Shown piece by piece: positions 14,577 to 45,615 of a DNA stretch of 64,000 nucleotides (position 1 is its first letter; every line of letters begins with the position of its first letter). The stretch lies in contig OZ220688.1 in the NCBI GenBank assembly GCA_965116445.1, positions 1,675,789 to 1,739,788 of the forward strand, written 5' to 3'. The stretch comes from Thermoanaerobaculia bacterium (GTDB lineage Bacteria > Acidobacteriota > Thermoanaerobaculia > Multivoradales > Multivoraceae). Under the pieces are notes generated by a model that searched no databases, was not told where the DNA came from, and was given only the letters and a program-made list of their open reading frames with translations. The translations under genes and the position numbers were made by a program.

Positions 14577-15350
14577 GTGGTCAGCAGCGGCCAGATCGAA
14601 GAGCCCTCCGACCGATCCACAGCAACCCGCCCCCCGGCATTCCCTGCCGCGACCGAGGACGACGAGATGGCAGCGAACACAGAAGCCCACACCCTCGATC
14701 CCGAGACGAGGCTCGACAGGATCGAGGCAAACCTGGAACACGCATCCCGACTGATGATGGAGTACCGAAAGGACCAGCGGGAGACCGATCGGCAACTGAA
14801 GGAGACCGATCGGCAACTGAAGGAGGATGCCCGGCGGGCGCAGGAGGACACCCGGCGGATGCAGGAGGACACCCGACGGTTGAAGAAGGAAGGGAAGAAG
14901 ACCGATAGACGACTCCGGAGAGCCGAGAACCTGTTCACCACGCAGTGGGGCAAGCTGATGGAGAGCCTGGTCAGGGGCGACCTCATCCGGCTGCTCAAAG
15001 AACGCCGAATCGAAGTCGAAGGCACCGCGAGGGAAACCGAGAAGGCCCGAAACGGGGAGCACTTCGAGATCGACATCATCGCGATCAACGGCAGTGAGCT
15101 CGTCGCCGTCGAGGTCAAGACCACGCTTCGCTCGGAGGGAGTCACTCACTTCCTCGGGAAACTCGAGCGCTTCCTGGAGTGGTGGCCCGAGTTCCAGGGC
15201 CGCAGGATCTACGGGGCAGTTGCGTATCTCCAGAGCAGCGACTCAGTGGTCAAGTATGCCCAGCGGAGGGGCCTCTTCGTCATTCGAGCCACCGGCAGCA
15301 GCGCCAGCATCGTGAACCCCGACGACTTCGAGCCGCGCATCTTCTCCTGA
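14577..15350 (+). CDS. Hypothetical coiled-coil protein with a C-terminal PD-(D/E)xK (restriction-endonuclease-like) fold; alternative start at ATG 14667
   Basis: N-terminal heptad-rich coiled coil with tandem peptide repeats (ETDRQLK x2, QEDTRRM/L x2). The C-terminus carries E...D...E-V-K spacing (GEHFEIDIIAINGSELVAVEVKT). Lower GC than its neighbours. Confidence 0.55.
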   Translation: MVSSGQIEEPSDRSTATRPPAFPAATEDDEMAANTEAHTLDPETRLDRIEANLEHASRLMMEYRKDQRETDRQLKETDRQLKEDARRAQEDTRRMQEDTRRLKKEGKKTDRRLRRAENLFTTQWGKLMESLVRGDLIRLLKERRIEVEGTARETEKARNGEHFEIDIIAINGSELVAVEVKTTLRSEGVTHFLGKLERFLEWWPEFQGRRIYGAVAYLQSSDSVVKYAQRRGLFVIRATGSSASIVNPDDFEPRIFS

Positions 15351-32216: not shown

Positions 32217-32250
32217 CGTCCGCACCGCGAGGGAGAGACGGCGTAACTCC

Positions 32251-32310
32251 GGTTTCCGCACGAATCGATCGGAACTCCGCGAGATCGGCTCGGGTTTCCG
32301 CAAGACTTGA

Positions 32311-32326
<16 letters not shown>
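32251..32326. promoter_or_regulatory. Three direct copies of GGTTTCCGCA(A/C)GA at 32251, 32293 and 32314 (spacing 42 and 21 bp) in the clpC-bamA intergenic region (the third overlaps the last clpC codons)
   Basis: Exact 10-mer GGTTTCCGCA repeated three times on the plus strand. The 21-bp phasing sits upstream of the bamA start at 32216. Confidence 0.4.
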
Positions 32327-39836: not shown

Positions 39837-39849
39837 AGACGGAGGACGC

Positions 39850-39857
39850 TTAGCAAT
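39850..39857. repeat. Target-site duplication, left copy (TTAGCAAT)
   Basis: An 8-bp direct repeat identical to 43289..43296; it abuts the left terminal inverted repeat. Confidence 0.7.
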
Positions 39858-39891
39858 GGGGATTATATACGAGAGTGCCGAAGCCGAACGG

Positions 39892-40089
39892 CTACCGGCG
39901 CACGCTCTTCGGTGACTTGACGTAGTTGACCTTCACCTCTCCGGCCAGCGCATCGGCGAGCACGTCAAAGCTGGCGTTGATCCGCAGGTCTTCCCGCAAC
40001 TCCGCTGCGGACGGCTGGTAGCTGGGGTGAACGATGTCTACGACAGGGCGTGTCGGCCGCTTGTCTCTCTCTACTTGCTTTCTAGCCAC
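39892..40089 (-). CDS. Small hypothetical protein (65 aa) overlapping the 3' end of the methyltransferase-HNH gene
   Basis: ORF MARKQVERDKRPTRPVVDIVHPSYQPSAAELREDLRINASFDVLADALAGEVKVNYV; no recognisable motif. Lies inside the element next to IRL. Confidence 0.3.
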   Translation of the reverse strand: MARKQVERDKRPTRPVVDIVHPSYQPSAAELREDLRINASFDVLADALAGEVKVNYVKSPKSVRR

Positions 40090-41333
40090 GCTAGCTTCTC
40101 CCTCAGTTCCGAGATCATGTTTGCCTTGGCGATGCTGTCTTCACTGGTGCCCTTCGTGAGGTTGCACGGACGGCAGAGCAGTTGAAGATTGTCGGGTTCG
40201 TCTCCGCCACCTTCGGCTTGCGGCACGATGTGGTCAACGTCCATCAGCCGAATATCCGTGAGCGTGGAGCACATCGCGCACCGGCCTTCTTGCTCGCCGA
40301 AGAGCAGGTGCTTGTGGCTGGTCGGCTTCGGCGGCGCTTGCGACTCCGTGACGCTCTCTGTGGTCCAATACTGGATGTCGTGAAGTACGGTGCCCATGAA
40401 CGAGACTTCGTTCGTCAGCCGCTCCCTCACGAGCTTGTAGGCCATGTCCGATATGTCCATGCCGATCCACTGGCGGTTCAGTCTCTCCGCTGCTACACAG
40501 GCGGTCGCGCAGCCACAGAAGGGGTCTAGCACGATGTCGCCCTCGTTCGAGGATGCCCGGATGATCCGTTCCAAGAGCGCTAGCGGCTTCTGGGTCGGAT
40601 AGCCAACGTTCTCGGCAGCCTGCGAGTTCAGGAAGTTGATATCGAACACGTCTGTATGTCGGTTGCCCTGGGTCGTGTCCACAGGTTTCACGATGTCGAA
40701 GTCGTTGCGGTCGATCTTCCCGTCGGCTTCCTTGCGGGCAAGAACCGCCTCGTCGTAGATGTACAGGTAGCGCTGGCCACCCATCCGCTTCGTGTTGTAC
40801 CCCGCTCGGACGAGTTGCTGTTTCCGTGGCGACAACTCGGAATCGTAGGTCGCGTGGTAGTGGAACTTCGTAGAGCGCGAGTAGAACAGGAGCGTGTCGT
40901 GCGCCCGCAGGAACTTCTTGGCCCGCGAGTTCGCCACTTTCTTGTACGACCACACGATCTCGTTGCGGAACTGAATCCGGCCGAAGATCACGTCCATCAG
41001 CGTCTTGAGGTAATGGCTGGCGGTCGGATCGCAGTGGAGGTACACGCTCGCCGTGGGCTTCATCACGCGCCGCAGTTCGAGCAGCCGCACCGCCATGTAG
41101 ATCAGGTACGCCTTCATGCCCTTGGAGTGCGCGGTGCCGGCCGCGTCGATGGTCTGGTACAGCGCCGGGTGATGCTCCGCGAGTTCGCCGTGCCACGCGA
41201 GGTCTACGTCGTCCAGCGTCCAAGTGTCCTTGAACGCCGCGCCCGCAGCCTTGCTGCCTATCGGAGCGGCGAAGTTCCGGTCCTTGTTGAACGGCGGATC
41301 GAGGTAGACGAGATCTACGCATCCGTCCGCCAT
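40071..41333 (-). CDS. DNA methyltransferase (N6-adenine/N4-cytosine, beta-class) fused to a C-terminal HNH endonuclease domain; the annotated ATG is internal. The conserved N-terminus continues upstream through the repeat tract.
   Basis: DPPF (motif IV) at the N-terminus and VLDPFCGCATACVAA (motif I, FxGxG). C-terminal HNH motif CAMC...DVDHIVPQAEGGGDEPDNLQLLCRPCN. The in-frame sequence 5' of ATG 41333 encodes ...YGPQDWVRAIHTGDNLNILRG, the conserved MTase N-terminal segment. Confidence 0.75.
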   Translation of the reverse strand: MADGCVDLVYLDPPFNKDRNFAAPIGSKAAGAAFKDTWTLDDVDLAWHGELAEHHPALYQTIDAAGTAHSKGMKAYLIYMAVRLLELRRVMKPTASVYLHCDPTASHYLKTLMDVIFGRIQFRNEIVWSYKKVANSRAKKFLRAHDTLLFYSRSTKFHYHATYDSELSPRKQQLVRAGYNTKRMGGQRYLYIYDEAVLARKEADGKIDRNDFDIVKPVDTTQGNRHTDVFDINFLNSQAAENVGYPTQKPLALLERIIRASSNEGDIVLDPFCGCATACVAAERLNRQWIGMDISDMAYKLVRERLTNEVSFMGTVLHDIQYWTTESVTESQAPPKPTSHKHLLFGEQEGRCAMCSTLTDIRLMDVDHIVPQAEGGGDEPDNLQLLCRPCNLTKGTSEDSIAKANMISELREKLAWLESK

Positions 41334-41488
41334 CCCGCGCAGGATATTGAGGTTGTCGCCGGTGTGGATCGCCCGAACCCAATCCTGCGGTCCGTATCTT
41401 GCAGGTGTAATTCCGCCCCCGGCCCCCGGCCCCCGGCCCCCGGCCCCCGGCCCCCGGCCCCCGGCCCCCGGCCCCCGGCCCCCGTCAT
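41315..41488 (-). other. Repeat-containing leader ORF (58 codons, MTGAGGRGPGAGGRGPGAGGRGPGAELHLQ...), out of frame with the methyltransferase
   Basis: ATG 41488..41486 overlaps the transposase TGA (ATGA), with GAGG upstream. It reads through the heptamer tract and stops at 41315, in a different frame (+2) from the MTase. Confidence 0.4.
41414..41483. repeat. Heptanucleotide simple-sequence repeat: (GGCCCCC)x9 perfect (41421..41483) plus one imperfect unit (41414..41420); (GGGGGCC)n on the coding strand
   Basis: Directly visible in the sequence. The 63-bp perfect tract is open in all three frames as Gly/Arg/Pro/Ala. Confidence 0.9.
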
Positions 41489-42519
41489 GCCGTCGCCTCG
41501 CGCGCGCCTGACGCCAAGCCGTTGTCGGCGATCAGGTCGCGGTAGCGGAGGCGCTTGCCCTCCATGTCTTCGGCGAAGCGGTCCAGTTGCTCCGCAGTGT
41601 CGAACTCGCGGACGTTCTGCCGCCAGCCGAACTCGTCCACATACCGCTGCAACTGCTTCGGGCTGAGCTTGTGGAACGTCCCCTTGTGCGCCCGCTTGAG
41701 CATCGACCACAGGGACTCTATGCCGTTCGTGTGGATCCTGCCGTCAACGTACTCGCCGACCGAGTGCTTGACCGTGCCCCGCTCGTAGTCCGTCAGGCCC
41801 CCGTAGGCGCCGGCGTCGTCCGTGTAGACGGTGGAGCCGGGTTCGACGTGCTCGCGGACGAAGGACTGTAGCGTCTCGCCGTCCGTGGAGTGAACGACCT
41901 TGGCGGCTACCTGCTTGGTCTTCCGGTCCTTGACGCCGACGACGGCGGTCTTGCCAGCCGTGCCTCGTCCGGTGAGCTGCTTGCGCTTCTTGGCGTGCAT
42001 GTTCTTCCGCTTCCCGCCGAAGTACGTCTCGTCCGCTTCTACCGGGCCGGGGAACAGGACGGTCGGCCCGTTTGCCTCAAACGCGGCGCGGAGACGCTGC
42101 GCCATGAACCACGCGGTCTTCTGGGTAACGCCCAGGTCGCGGTGCAGCTTCATGCTCGACACACTCTTGAGGCTGGTCGTGAGCAGGAACGTGGCGAGCA
42201 TCCATTTCTGGAAGCCGATCTTCGAGCCTTCCATGACGGTGCCGGTCTTCGCGCTGAACCGCTGGTAGCAGCCCTTCTCGCGGCAGCGGAACGGCATCGT
42301 CTTGTGCTTCGCGCCGGTCTGGACGTTGTGCGATCCACAGGCCGGGCAGGTCGGCCCGTCGGGCCAGCGCCGCTTGACGTACCACGCCTCGGCTGCCGCG
42401 TCGTCCGGGAACATCCGCATCACCTCTACCAGAGTGATGCCCTCCCGGTGCGCCTTGCCCGGTGCCTTGTGCATCGTCGCCATGCACAGAACCTTACAGG
42501 AGAGTGCCGGTGAAGTCAA
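41485..42519 (-). CDS. IS1595 family transposase
   Basis: MHKAPGKAHREGITLVEVMRMFPDDAAAEAWYVKRRWPDGPTCPACGSHNV is the N-terminal zinc-ribbon/HTH typical of IS1595/ISXO2-like transposases, followed by a DDE-type core. The start may be the ATG at 42483. Confidence 0.8.
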   Translation of the reverse strand: MTSPALSCKVLCMATMHKAPGKAHREGITLVEVMRMFPDDAAAEAWYVKRRWPDGPTCPACGSHNVQTGAKHKTMPFRCREKGCYQRFSAKTGTVMEGSKIGFQKWMLATFLLTTSLKSVSSMKLHRDLGVTQKTAWFMAQRLRAAFEANGPTVLFPGPVEADETYFGGKRKNMHAKKRKQLTGRGTAGKTAVVGVKDRKTKQVAAKVVHSTDGETLQSFVREHVEPGSTVYTDDAGAYGGLTDYERGTVKHSVGEYVDGRIHTNGIESLWSMLKRAHKGTFHKLSPKQLQRYVDEFGWRQNVREFDTAEQLDRFAEDMEGKRLRYRDLIADNGLASGAREATA

Positions 42520-42597
42520 GCGACCCAGGGTGGCCGCGAGTACAATGGCTACGAATCGGGGGTCGAGACAGCCCCCACGACAAGGGAGACAAGAAGA

Positions 42598-42887
42598 TGA
42601 CTGAACCGCTGAACGGAGAGCCGCGAAAGTCAGGCACTCAGCCCGGCAACAAGGAGCCTCTGCCGAGACTCAAATCCTCAGTTCGGATCGCCGTCACCTA
42701 CTTCGCGGCTGGCTACCTGTTCGGAGGAAGTCTGTGGTTGGTCTACCTCGAACATACCGGCACAGTCGAGACCGCCACAAAGGATCTGTTCCTCTACACC
42801 GCACCTGTCGCTACGGGTATCCTCACCTACTGGTTCGGGACACGGACTGCGCAGAAGAGCCACGAGCAGGAAGGCGGGAACGGTTAG
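42598..42887 (+). CDS. Small hypothetical membrane protein (2 TM) carried by the element
   Basis: MTEPLNGEPRKSG... with two hydrophobic helices (IAVTYFAAGYLFGGSLWLVYL; LFLYTAPVATGILTYWFG). Low GC. Confidence 0.35.
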
Positions 42888-42953
42888 TACGCCACCGCCA
42901 ATCATGACGGCTGACCCGATCTCATCCACCCAGTCACGTTTCGCGGGCATCGC

Positions 42954-43157
42954 TCACCGCCGCTCCGCTGCCCTGGCCGGTTCCTTGTCGTGTAGGAACC
43001 CCGGCTCGAAGCGCTGGCGTTCCTGCATCAGGTCTTCGAGGTCTTGTTCGATCTCGTCGAGGACGTGCAGCGCTCGGCGCCGGTCGTGTCGGGCTTCGGC
43101 GATCTCCTGGTCCAGCGCGTGCTGGCGTTCACGGTCTCGGCTTCTCAAGCGTCGCAT
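42954..43157 (-). CDS. Small hypothetical charged/coiled protein (67 aa) carried by the element
   Basis: ORF MRRLRSRDRERQHALDQEIAEARHDRRRALHVLDEIEQDLEDLMQERQRFEPGF; vaguely DUF465-like. Weak evidence. Confidence 0.25.
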   Translation of the reverse strand: MRRLRSRDRERQHALDQEIAEARHDRRRALHVLDEIEQDLEDLMQERQRFEPGFLHDKEPARAAERR

Positions 43158-43288
43158 CGGGGATTCTCCCAGAGGTTGTGGTTCTAGCCGTCAATCATAC
43201 CACCGCTTGTAGAGTCAGGTGGGAAGTAGCACGTCCCGCAAAGAGTTGTCTAGCCCTGTTAGGTTCGGCACTCTCGTATATAATCCCC

Positions 43289-43296
43289 TTAGCAAT
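43289..43296. repeat. Target-site duplication, right copy (TTAGCAAT); its last two bases plus the following G form the ATG of the downstream gene
   Basis: Identical to 39850..39857. Confidence 0.7.
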
Positions 43297-44626
43297 GTCC
43301 AACCCTGGCACCCGGACGCAAGCACCGGAAACAGAGCGGGCCTACATCGTGCAACGCGAAGACAATCGAATCTTCTTCACGGAGCGCGTCGATCCCAAGG
43401 CACACGGGCAGTTCATGTGGTGTCTGCACGACTGCCTCGAGAAGGGCTACGAGGACGTCTTTCTGGACCTGTCGCAATGTGAAGCGGCATTTCCGAACGG
43501 TGTGCTGCCGCTGATCGCCAGCATCGACAACCTTCGGCGCGAACACAAGGAGGTGTCGGTGACCCTTCCTGCAAGCGAGTACATTCAACGGCTTTTCCTC
43601 AACACGAATTGGGCCCACCTCCTGGAGCCCGATCGCTATGCGCCAAGCGAAACGTCCCACCCACGTCACGTTCCGGCGAGACGGTTCAACACTGCCGAAC
43701 ACCAACACCGGCTTGTCGGAAAGACACTCAACGTCCTCTTGGGCGGGCTCCCGTCCCTCCAGCGAGACGACCTCTCTGCTCTCGAGTGGTCCATCAACGA
43801 AATCACCGACAACGTTCTGACTCACGCCGACTGCGACCTCGGCGGGATCCTGCAGGTCAGCACTTTCGAGAATGCCGGCAAGGTGGCCGTGGGCGTCACG
43901 GACTCAGGCCGTGGCATCCGCGAATCCCTCCGGGAGAGCCACCGGGAACTGACGGACGACGCCGACGCGATCTACAAGGCTCTCGAGGCGGGCGTTACCC
44001 GGCATTCCGATATCGGCCAAGGCAATGGTATGGCCGGCGCGCTCCGGATCGCCATGATGTCGGGCGGCTCAATCGAGATCACGTCTGGTCGAGCCCAGGT
44101 CAGTTACCGGGACGGGCGGTCGACCACCTTCAGGCGCAGCCGGCGGCAGACCTTCCACGGCACCTTCGTCTACTTCGACATCGATCTAGCCACCCGCTTC
44201 GACCTCTCCGAGGCCCTCGACTTCGGAGGCGGACCTCACCGCCCAGTAGACATAGTGGAGGCACTCTACGAAACAGACGACGGAAGAGCCCTCGCCCTTC
44301 ACCTTCGGGACGAGGAGGTAGGATTCGGGTCCCGAATGGCCGGAAGACAGATACGTACCAAGGCTCTGAACCTGCTGGCCGCAGAGCCGCACAAGCCTCT
44401 TCTCCTGGACTGGGACGGCGTGCCCCTGGTCTCAAGCAGTTTCGCCGACGAGCTTGTCGGCAAACTGTTCGCAACACTCGGCCCACTTACCTTCAGTCTT
44501 CGAGTGCGGAACACCGGAATGCGTCCCGTCGTCCACGGGTTGATCGACAAGGCCATCATGCAACGCGCGGGCCAAACGCTCGCCCGAGCCCGGGAGGAGA
44601 GCGATGCCCCATCCAAGAGTGACTGA
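43295..44626 (+). CDS. GHKL/HATPase_c-family ATP-binding protein with STAS-like flanking domains (C-terminal DUF4325-like)
   Basis: N-box EITDNVLTHA, G1 VTDSGRGI and G2 GQGNGMAGALR motifs of Bergerat-fold ATPases (RsbW/SpoIIAB-like). C-terminal LLLDWDGVPLVSSSFADELVGKL resembles STAS/DUF4325. Lower GC than the flanks. Confidence 0.6.
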   Translation: MSNPGTRTQAPETERAYIVQREDNRIFFTERVDPKAHGQFMWCLHDCLEKGYEDVFLDLSQCEAAFPNGVLPLIASIDNLRREHKEVSVTLPASEYIQRLFLNTNWAHLLEPDRYAPSETSHPRHVPARRFNTAEHQHRLVGKTLNVLLGGLPSLQRDDLSALEWSINEITDNVLTHADCDLGGILQVSTFENAGKVAVGVTDSGRGIRESLRESHRELTDDADAIYKALEAGVTRHSDIGQGNGMAGALRIAMMSGGSIEITSGRAQVSYRDGRSTTFRRSRRQTFHGTFVYFDIDLATRFDLSEALDFGGGPHRPVDIVEALYETDDGRALALHLRDEEVGFGSRMAGRQIRTKALNLLAAEPHKPLLLDWDGVPLVSSSFADELVGKLFATLGPLTFSLRVRNTGMRPVVHGLIDKAIMQRAGQTLARAREESDAPSKSD

Positions 44627-44742: not shown

Positions 44743-45615
44743 TCACAACGAGGCCCTGACATCGAAGCGGAGAGTGTCTCGTCGGGAGTCCGCTTGGTGG
44801 TCGAAGCCAAGGGAGCAACCACCTCGAGTGAAGCTGGCCGTCGTAACAAAGACACCCTTAGTGGTTCCGGCCGCATCGATTGCGCCTCCGAAGTTGCGCA
44901 GGTCAGACCCGCCCACCGACTTCCCTTCGGCAAACTTCTTGGCTTGGACATACACCGCGTCCAGCCCCAGAGCGTCTTCACGAATCTTGCCGTCGATGCC
45001 GCCGTCGCCCGAGCCCCCGGTAACCTCACCACGGTCCGGGTTTCCGCCTCCATAGCCCAAGGCGATCAGGAGGTCCACGACTACGCGCTCGAAGAAGGCC
45101 GGGTCCTCCTGACGGAGCCGATCGAGGATCTCCACCTCGAGCGCTCCGCTCAACTCAGCCACAGCCGCCTCGAGTCTCTCCTCGGGCGGCTCCTCCACTG
45201 GGGAACGAGTCCCTGCTGCGGCCTCATCGCCGCCGTCGTCTGTCGGGACCGTTGCCTTGGCTCCTCGCCGCGAACTCTGAGCCTTCCAGTCCTTGTACTG
45301 CTGGTCCGCGTTGAGAAAGACAACGTCAACCCGTGAGCCGGCAACCAGGATTCCTCGCCCCTTCTCCGTCAGGCCGTGGTAGCCGCGGCGACTGCCAGCT
45401 ACGAGTCCCGCTCCCTTGAGGTGAGACAGGCTCCAGCTCAGGCGATTGTGGAAGACGGGCTGCCGTCCATTGGCCATCATGACGCTTCGGTCCTTCGTGC
45501 TCAGGCCAGTCGCCGCGGCGACCCGCTCCCGGATCTTGGCCAAGGGAAGTTCCTCGCAGTCAACCAGCGACTCCAGTACCGGCTGCATCAAGTTCGAGTA
45601 ATCCGGAACGGTCAT
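44743..45615 (-). CDS. mrr: Mrr-like Type IV restriction endonuclease (Mrr_N wHTH + Mrr_cat PD-(D/E)xK), possibly C-terminally shortened
   Basis: N-terminus: QPVLESL...GLSTKD...PVFHNRLSWSLSHLKGAGL. Catalytic core: GGSGDGGIDGKIREDALGLDAVYVQAKKF...KGVFVTTASFT, very close to E. coli Mrr. The ORF ends about 20 aa earlier than typical Mrr proteins. Confidence 0.75.
   Translation of the reverse strand: MTVPDYSNLMQPVLESLVDCEELPLAKIRERVAAATGLSTKDRSVMMANGRQPVFHNRLSWSLSHLKGAGLVAGSRRGYHGLTEKGRGILVAGSRVDVVFLNADQQYKDWKAQSSRRGAKATVPTDDGGDEAAAGTRSPVEEPPEERLEAAVAELSGALEVEILDRLRQEDPAFFERVVVDLLIALGYGGGNPDRGEVTGGSGDGGIDGKIREDALGLDAVYVQAKKFAEGKSVGGSDLRNFGGAIDAAGTTKGVFVTTASFTRGGCSLGFDHQADSRRDTLRFDVRASL

Follow-up and report, generated by a model that had tools for sequence, protein, structure and literature searches.

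A 64,000-nucleotide stretch of contig OZ220688.1 (positions 1,675,789 to 1,739,788 of the forward strand; GenBank assembly GCA_965116445.1) from a Thermoanaerobaculia bacterium, referred to throughout as the window, carries an IS1595-family insertion sequence (IS) element at 39858..43288. This one element holds a transposase gene, a short-unit repeat tract, a gene for a DNA methyltransferase (MTase) with a predicted HNH nuclease domain, and a conserved open reading frame (ORF) of 65 aa. The transposase (41485..42483, minus strand) is a DDE enzyme of 332 aa read from ATG 42483, with an N-terminal zinc ribbon and clear family matches (PF12762, 3.5e-43; PF12760, 1.6e-05; NCBIfam transpos_IS1595, 195 bits against a cutoff of 75). 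The MTase-HNH gene is annotated on the same strand as a 420-aa ORF at 40071..41333, combining a PF01555 beta-class N6A/N4C MTase with a C-terminal HNH domain. The 65-aa ORF (39892..40089, minus strand) overlaps its 3′ end by 19 nt.

The simple-sequence repeat (SSR) at 41415..41484 lies between the transposase and the annotated MTase-HNH gene, with its first base, 41484, directly 3′ of the transposase TGA on the minus strand. Tandem Repeats Finder (TRF) reports a perfect period-7 array of 10.0 copies with 100% matches and a score of 140, the highest among the 49 rows for the window. On the coding (minus) strand the array reads (CGGGGGC)x10, equivalent to (GGGGGCC)x9 + GGGGGC, and all three frames are open. 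The initial annotation described nine perfect GGCCCCC units and an imperfect tenth. The tract and its position stand, but the imperfect unit does not, as TRF and a regular-expression search give ten perfect units in another register (GGCCCCC x9 at 41421..41483; GCCCCCG x10 at 41415..41484). The perfect run is 70 nt long, whereas the second-longest array in the window (periods 4, 5, 7, 8) reaches 17 nt and 100 first-order Markov simulations of the window give 21 nt at most; a chance origin is therefore excluded, and the array is unique in the window. An unusually stable tract hairpin was considered and found no support, as DNA folds of the window tract did not surpass those of shuffled sequences (z = +1.9 and +1.0). 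In this comparison the 8-mer tract of the related locus L006 alone stands out (z = −2.8).

The ATG start of the MTase-HNH gene (41486..41488, minus strand) overlaps the transposase TGA (41487..41485) to form ATGA, and the same overlap (ATGA or GTGA) serves as the called start in the related loci L001, L014, and L015, whose alleles are in frame. A Shine-Dalgarno-like GAGG of putative function (41496..41499, minus strand) lies 7 nt before this ATG, within the last transposase codons. The distance from ATG 41488 to GGA at 41414, the first codon past the tract, is 74 nt, and to ATG 41333 it is 155 nt, which places the present allele out of frame. Its product (41315..41488, minus strand) would consist of 57 aa and a stop, MTGAGGRGPG...WRTDA. 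The MTase frame itself reads ...GGGITPARYGPQDWVRAIHTGDNLNILRGMADGCVDLVYLDPPFN and runs through the tract into GITPARYGPQDWVRAIHTGDNLNILRG-MADGCVDLVYLDPPFN; from the stop that bounds it upstream as far as ATG 41333 it contains no ATG, GTG or TTG. Apart from the tract, this ORF is intact over 447 codons. The frame would be restored by gaining one unit (for a distance of 81 nt) or losing two (60 nt), either of which would fuse ATG 41488 to the MTase. When the minus strand was read again, the initial account of this junction was reproduced throughout, from the ATGA overlap with its upstream GAGG and the three open frames to the termination at 41315 after 58 codons (counting the stop), the OFF state and its reversal by one unit gained or two lost.

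Upstream of the annotated start lies a 27-codon N-terminal leader of the MTase, GITPARYGPQDWVRAIHTGDNLNILRG (41334..41414, minus strand), in which the present frame contains no start codon. Homologues were surveyed among the best 120 matches, ~108 of them outside the IS-borne subfamily. Of these ~108, 105 have at least 23 residues before DPPF, with ~30 residues being typical, and three begin at the Met of RGM. The leader motif among homologues is xNRTxWTGDNLxxxRGMNSxSVDLIYLDPPF. An alignment of 64 sequences shows D20 and N21 to be invariant, with conservation of at least 90% at T15, L22, R26, and G27; all of these lie upstream of M28, a conserved internal Met encoded by ATG 41333. The AlphaFold model (pLDDT, the model's confidence score, 84) places a helix at residues 9–12, a strand at 15–18, and a helix at 21–27, and a product begun at Met 41333 would lose the conserved strand and helix. 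Across 10 distinct related loci, substitutions in the 27 leader codons fall 102/44/229 on codon positions 1/2/3, a pattern that marks the leader as translated in the MTase frame. As it is coding but has no start codon of its own, translation must enter from the tract, and the sole start on offer is the ATG (GTG in some relatives) that overlaps the transposase stop. These homologue N-termini, conserved residues, modelled structures, and third-position bias bear out the earlier suggestion that ATG 41333 is internal and cuts a conserved region. This also carries a warning for annotation, namely that gene callers cut these MTase-HNH genes short at the internal Met.

The comparison set consists of 13 related loci from contigs of the close subfamily. 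All 13 carry a 7- or 8-nt repeat between an ATG or GTG and the conserved MTase leader, and in 12 an IS1595 transposase reading frame lies directly upstream, its stop overlapping the start codon as ATGA or GTGA. This upstream transposase is reported as intact or nearly so in eleven loci, while that of L020 is cut by the contig end and that of L012 is internally deleted. In the twelve transposase-bearing loci the leader after the tract reads GGAATTGT.CCT.... The units comprise six different 7-mers and one 8-mer, none with a length that is a multiple of 3, in copy numbers from 2 to 32, and all seven unit types lack a stop codon in any frame.

The alleles can be compared by how far the start codon lies from the GGA codon. 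Those in frame are L001 (GTG, GCGCGAA x6, 51 nt), L014 (ATG, GCGGGAC x9, 72 nt), and L015 (GTG, GCGGGAC x3, 30 nt). Out of frame are the window copy (ATG, CGGGGGC x10, 74 nt), L020 (GTG, GCGCGAA x4, 37 nt), L002 (ATG, GCGGGAC x8, 65 nt), L004 (GTG, 8-nt CGACCGGG x4, 38 nt), L006 and L007 (GTG, 8-nt CGACCGGG x5, 46 nt), L005 (GTG, irregular with ~6 units, 55 nt), L012 (ATG, CGACCGG x5, 55 nt), L013 (ATG, GACGGCG x2, 17 nt), and L009, which has no transposase (ATG, CCGACCG x32, 254 nt). Also out of frame are L010 and L011 (GTG, 8-nt ACCGGGCG x2, 19 nt), two copies in one genome, of which L003 is a second fetch of one. In L008 the GCGGGAC tract is too long to assemble and holds a scaffold gap. 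Of the 14 resolved copies, three are in frame and 11, including the window, out of frame, a proportion compatible with the one third expected from random frame sampling. The in-frame loci (P0003/L001, P0125/L014, P0123/L015) encode full-length proteins of 446–468 aa, which the source pipelines called from the stop-overlapping ATG or GTG, with N-termini that are translated repeats (MSAKREARSAKREARS..., MSGTRDAGRGTRDAGRGTRDAGRG..., MSGTRDAGRAG...); MSGTRDAGRGTRDAGR... is likewise such a translated repeat. Tract length in relatives, a comparison proposed in the initial annotation, is hence not uniform, with 2 to 32 copies over the 13 loci.

Three of these loci deserve separate mention. L012 (OZ243982.1) is a degenerate copy with an internally deleted transposase in which the ATGA junction and 5-unit tract are kept. 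L013 (OZ245033.1) is likewise degenerate, with a 2-unit tract and a frameshift in the MTase itself (P0121). In L009 (3666..3920) a perfect (CCGACCG) x32 array of 224 nt lies between the ATG and the conserved leader, with a TIR-domain gene upstream. A dependence of the tract on the transposase was rejected on account of L009, where the 32-unit tract precedes the same leader with neither transposase nor inverted repeat.

The behaviour of the tract is seen most directly in L004–L007, which represent the same insertion with the same flanks, in a TonB-dependent receptor gene, recovered from four metagenome samples. From inverted repeat to inverted repeat (2658–2675 bp) the four copies agree at every aligned column outside the tract, whose unit number is 4, 5, 5 or ~6 (irregular). 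As the copies differ only here, tract length changes far faster than point substitutions accrue, the behaviour by which a contingency repeat is defined. L002 and L014, from one sample, are 97.7% identical and one unit apart (GCGGGAC 8x vs. 9x), with the frame flipped. Each unit also looks as if it derives from another in a single step (GACGCGG, GACCGGC, GACCGGGC, GACGGCG, CGACCGC...), which suggests unit turnover by mutation followed by expansion. For a phase-variable MTase, published work looks for at least 3 units, for units of at least 3 nt, together with copy-number variation between isolates (PMC5909438). The window tract has at least 3 units of a length that is not a multiple of 3, located at the 5′ end of the ORF. 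Copy number varies between relatives (GCGGGAC x3, x8, x9; GCGCGAA x4, x6), and in silico a change in copy number turns a full-length ORF into a truncated one or the reverse.

Together these data point, with a probability of about 0.78, to the tract being a hypermutable SSR, a contingency locus that turns translation ON or OFF for the MTase-HNH cargo of an IS1595-family transporter IS (tIS). A phase-variable switch had been proposed from the window alone and now gains support from 13 related loci, the presence of in- and out-of-frame alleles, and the tract-only polymorphism. In the proposed mechanism the MTase-HNH start overlaps the transposase stop (ATGA), so that the cargo gene would probably be co-transcribed with, and translationally coupled to, the transposase. 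The four-base overlap and the lack of a minus-strand (coding-strand) terminator-like site between the two genes fit co-transcription and coupling without showing either. With the repeat placed directly after the overlapping start codon, slipped-strand mispairing at replication would gain or lose units of 7 nt (8 nt in some relatives) and, because of these unit lengths, move the start in and out of the MTase frame. From an in-frame allele the full-length MTase-HNH would be made, preceded by a short N-terminal peptide of low complexity, which in the window is (GAGGRGP)n, while in an out-of-frame allele, such as the 10-unit window copy, translation would stop after 57 aa. We infer slippage, coupling to transposase translation, the enzymatic activities, and the consequences of switching from sequence.

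Several points weigh against such a switch. The 3 of 14 copies in frame fit a random third, but fit decay as well. With just 2 units each, L010, L011, and L013 are in effect fixed in an out-of-frame state, and degenerate elements exist (the L012 transposase deletion and L013 MTase frameshift). Most relatives are metagenome assemblies, some at 4–9x coverage, in which repeat counts may be mis-assembled, and the tract of L005 is irregular. A sigma-70 consensus scan found no promoter; a putative promoter-like TTGACT-17-TAAGGT upstream of the transposase was read by eye. In addition, MTase and nuclease activity, co-transcription, and translational coupling are all predictions.

The alternative that survives best, though we judge it unlikely, is that the tract is a neutral microsatellite in a decaying element, its out-of-frame state reflecting pseudogenisation of an unneeded cargo gene. 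Decay would account for the 11 of 14 resolved copies that are out of frame, for the lesions in L012 and L013, and for the several tracts of only 2 units. It is harder to reconcile with purifying selection on the leader and the rest of the gene (102/44/229), or with an MTase ORF that is intact over its 447 codons in the window apart from the tract. Neither would decay predict full-length in-frame alleles at three loci, seven unit types that are all non-multiples of 3 and stop-free in every frame, or a tract kept at the exact site even in L009, which lost its transposase.

It is very unlikely that the unit count, and hence the OFF call, is a consensus error of assembly or sequencing in a GC-rich repeat that is itself real. 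Many relatives are low-coverage long-read metagenome-assembled genomes (MAGs), the irregular L005 has 4.4x coverage, and the scaffold gap of L008 falls within its tract. However, tracts occur at the same site in 14 independent assemblies from different assemblers, L006 and L007 agree exactly although they come from different samples, and the window tract is perfect. A miscount would also alter the present state only and leave a frame-setting repeat in place. Least probable of all is tract-independent expression, with the tract in a leader and translation from the internal ATG 41333 or through ribosomal frameshifting or transcriptional slippage over the G-rich repeat: ATG 41333 does exist, gene callers use it in out-of-frame loci, and the out-of-frame ORF ends 16 nt past it (41315) such that termination-reinitiation is conceivable, but a start at this Met of the RGM motif drops the invariant D20 and N21 with the predicted strand and helix, the 27 codons upstream evolve as coding sequence, no Shine-Dalgarno-like purine run precedes it, and G5 runs are shorter than tracts that cause transcriptional slippage.

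The MTase-HNH ORF has DPPF near its N-terminus and DPFxGxxT later, which places motif IV N-terminal to motif I (FxGxG-like) in the beta-class order, and its PF01555 match is 1e-45. C-terminal to the MTase, the HNH residues CxxC...DH...N...CxxC are intact (HNH match 1.9e-11). In Foldseek the model resembles CcrM, M.RsrI, M.BceJIV, and M.MboIIA (E about 1e-15), and there are PDB sequence matches too. The ORF is hence predicted to encode a beta-class N6A/N4C DNA methyltransferase (PF01555) fused to an HNH nuclease domain, with the corresponding activities. The best PADLOC matches are Type II MTase models, with Type III models scoring lower. With predicted nuclease and MTase domains joined in one polypeptide, the protein is a candidate single-chain (Type IIC/IIG-like) restriction-modification enzyme, in which sequence-specific cleavage would be blocked by its own methylation.

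The close subfamily is small, comprising P0001–P0009 and their cluster members. Its N-terminal 128 residues are 85–97% identical and its C-terminal 177 residues 80–95% identical, with the central 90–171 residues falling into seven mutually dissimilar classes (19–35% identity). Seven central classes between conserved ends resemble the allelic recognition-domain pattern seen in phase-variable mod genes; on this analogy the swapped regions are putative alternative specificity regions, at least seven in number. A link between repeat unit and MTase specificity was tried and rejected on two comparisons. The window and P0002 have a common central region (92% identical) and different units (7-nt CGGGGGC vs. 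8-nt CGACCGGG), and L002 and L008 have the common unit GCGGGAC and different central regions. An exact-protein look-up of the 420-aa ORF returned no contig on record, and a protein search with the N-terminal 155 aa found no new subfamily members. The same search returned more than 100 short proteins (144–271 aa) of 65–75% identity that cover the first half of PF01555 only. Many relatives of the MTase family may be split or truncated in assemblies.

The boundaries of the element are well defined. The left terminal inverted repeat is the 25-nt GGGGATTATATACGAGAGTGCCGAA (43264..43288, minus strand), with the 8-bp target duplication ATTGCTAA just outside it at 43296..43289. The right terminal inverted repeat is the same 25-mer (39858..39882, plus strand), with TTAGCAAT (= ATTGCTAA reversed) at 39850..39857, and each repeat occurs exactly once in the window. 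In BLAST comparisons with related loci, homology extends from 42520 to 39858, and short matches at 43288..43264 and 39885..39848 mark the element ends. Target duplications of 8 bases flank every complete copy examined: the window (ATTGCTAA), L004 (TTGTCAAT), L001 (TTTGCGTC), L002 (CTTGATTG), L014 (ATCCTGAA), and L015 (TTCGACTT). As inverted repeats and target duplications enclose the transposase, tract, MTase-HNH gene, and an ORF of 61–66 aa, these form a single transporter IS, a connection that the initial annotation did not make, and the element is an IS1595-family tIS by the defining features examined.

Related elements are ~2.66 kb long and the window copy is 3.43 kb because of an extra 743-bp segment (42521..43263) that separates the left inverted repeat from the region upstream of the transposase. 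This segment is absent from all related elements and splits a conserved inverted repeat, GAGAGTGCCG...CGGCACTCTC, which brackets a TTGACT box in relatives. Its two small ORFs, one of 67 aa (43157..42954, minus strand) and one at 42462..42887 (plus strand) with a hydrophobic C-terminal half, have no family match. At the other end of the element, an ORF of 61–66 aa follows the MTase in all eight related copies checked and occurs in two sequence variants. The 65-aa ORF of the window has no Pfam, NCBIfam or PADLOC match and could be a controller or inhibitor of MTase-HNH.

Mobility of the element is indicated by neighbours that differ in every locus and by the two copies in one genome (L010, L011). 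Species-representative matches are MAGs of Candidatus Multivorans and of another Thermoanaerobaculia bacterium, both Acidobacteriota. A Joint Genome Institute metagenome scan gave nothing with the MTase-leader pattern and one 1.2-kb fragment with the inverted-repeat pattern. Two viral-contig scans gave nothing, and a plasmid BLAST of the element gave only short 70–73% matches, mostly under annotated methyltransferase genes. In L004 (2404..7720) the element interrupts the TonB-dependent receptor gene, with the Plug domain upstream and the barrel downstream, which explains a 508-aa Plug-transposase chimeric ORF reported by gene callers. The in-frame copy L015 (ena:ERZ25068633 ctg159028_7x_c) lies on a 102.7-kb contig with many small unannotated ORFs, and the "_c" of its name perhaps stands for circular. 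This contig may be a plasmid or phage-plasmid vehicle of the element.

The immediate neighbours of the element are a 482-aa HATPase_c + DUF4325 (STAS-like) gene (43178..44626, plus strand) and a gene of the Mrr family of Type IV (methyl-dependent) restriction enzymes (44743..45615, minus strand). The GC content of the region 39.8–45.6 kb is 57–67%, mostly 58–65%, below the 68% of the window as a whole, a difference that suggests acquisition as an island. An active MTase beside Mrr could be self-toxic, and the OFF state might be favoured in this setting. Elsewhere in the window, the tandem repeats at 14780..14890 and 32247..32326 have 21-nt units (2.2 to 3.4 copies, up to 100% matches) and a 42-nt unit (1.9 copies). 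As 21 and 42 are both divisible by 3, these repeats are probably coding.

If the tract is a switch for MTase-HNH, its location inside a transposable element means that switch and enzyme would travel together between genomes. Candidate roles for switching are avoidance of self-restriction on entering a new genome, evasion of the neighbouring Mrr-type nuclease, bet-hedged defence, and epigenetic regulation. A wider proposal, which we put forward only tentatively, is that the element is a mobile contingency locus: a transposon with its own phase-variable single-chain MTase-HNH (restriction-modification-like or homing-like) and swappable target-recognition cassettes, whose transposase-coupled translation is gated by a fast-evolving repeat. 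Were this true, switching could aid survival in unmethylated genomes or in hosts with methyl-dependent nucleases such as the adjacent Mrr, stochastic defence or addiction would follow entry, and phase-variable epigenetic switching would extend to free-living Acidobacteriota and to transposable elements. Confirmation of the switch would also offer a tractable handle on the function of the large MTase-HNH family and an example of epigenetic bet-hedging in large-genome free-living bacteria.

To our knowledge, repeat-driven ON/OFF switching of MTases is well established, though almost entirely for host-adapted pathogens and their Type I, Type III, and Type IIG systems. The present locus differs in its uncharacterised MTase-HNH with at least seven putative specificity regions, its environmental Thermoanaerobaculia hosts, and the direct junction to a transposase frame. 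A literature search found no paper on MTase-HNH cargo in IS1595 elements, on this arrangement, or on Candidatus Multivorans.

The closest parallel for the tract is found in Type III mod genes, such as Haemophilus and Neisseria modA and a mod gene of E. coli in which a 7-nt repeat, CAGCGAC[n], follows closely on the start codon (PMC5909438). In both, the 5′ end of an ORF for a beta-class MTase of the N6-adenine type contains an SSR whose unit length is not divisible by 3 and whose copy number varies between isolates and sets the reading frame. Both also have conserved termini around a highly variable, multi-allele central target-recognition region, putative in the present case. However, the window system has no res partner or Mod architecture and has instead a C-terminal HNH nuclease domain. 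Its gene is transposable-element cargo with a start overlapping the transposase stop, its GC-rich 7- and 8-mer units differ between near-identical elements, and its hosts are free-living Acidobacteriota rather than host-adapted pathogens. Assignment as a Type III mod gene was rejected, as the element holds only the transposase, MTase-HNH, and 65-aa ORF, without res, and PADLOC favours Type II models. The label phasevarion would hence apply to this locus by analogy and not by membership.

The predicted single-chain organisation resembles that of the phase-variable Type IIG restriction-modification enzyme Cj0031 of Campylobacter jejuni (PMC4889913), a single polypeptide with nuclease and MTase functions that is switched ON and OFF by a repeat tract within the ORF. 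Cj0031 differs in its polyG tract, its chromosomal rather than transposon-borne location, and a Type IIG architecture much larger than the 420–447 aa found here, where an HNH domain, a predicted nuclease, lies C-terminal to a beta-class MTase.

Stand-alone MTase-HNH fusions (PF01555 + PF01844), a large uncharacterised family, have the same architecture at 50–65% identity, with both domains present in all of the best 120 matches. Unlike the window gene, P0007 and P0017, the two distant members examined, begin with an ordinary, repeat-free N-terminus and have no transposase directly upstream. At the P0007 locus an IS1595-type transposase gene lies ~1 kb downstream on the opposite strand.

With regard to the vehicle, transporter ISs are a known category, so far limited to the IS1595 and IS66 families (10.1101/2021.05.26.445724; PMC5704250). 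Like the IS1595-family tISCpe8 and MTnSag1 described in these sources, the window element combines an IS1595-type DDE transposase, 25-bp inverted repeats, and passenger genes inside them with a flanking target-site duplication, here of 8 bp. It differs from both in carrying MTase-HNH and a 65-aa ORF in place of a resistance or mobilisation gene, and in a cargo start that is fused to the transposase stop through an apparently hypermutable repeat.

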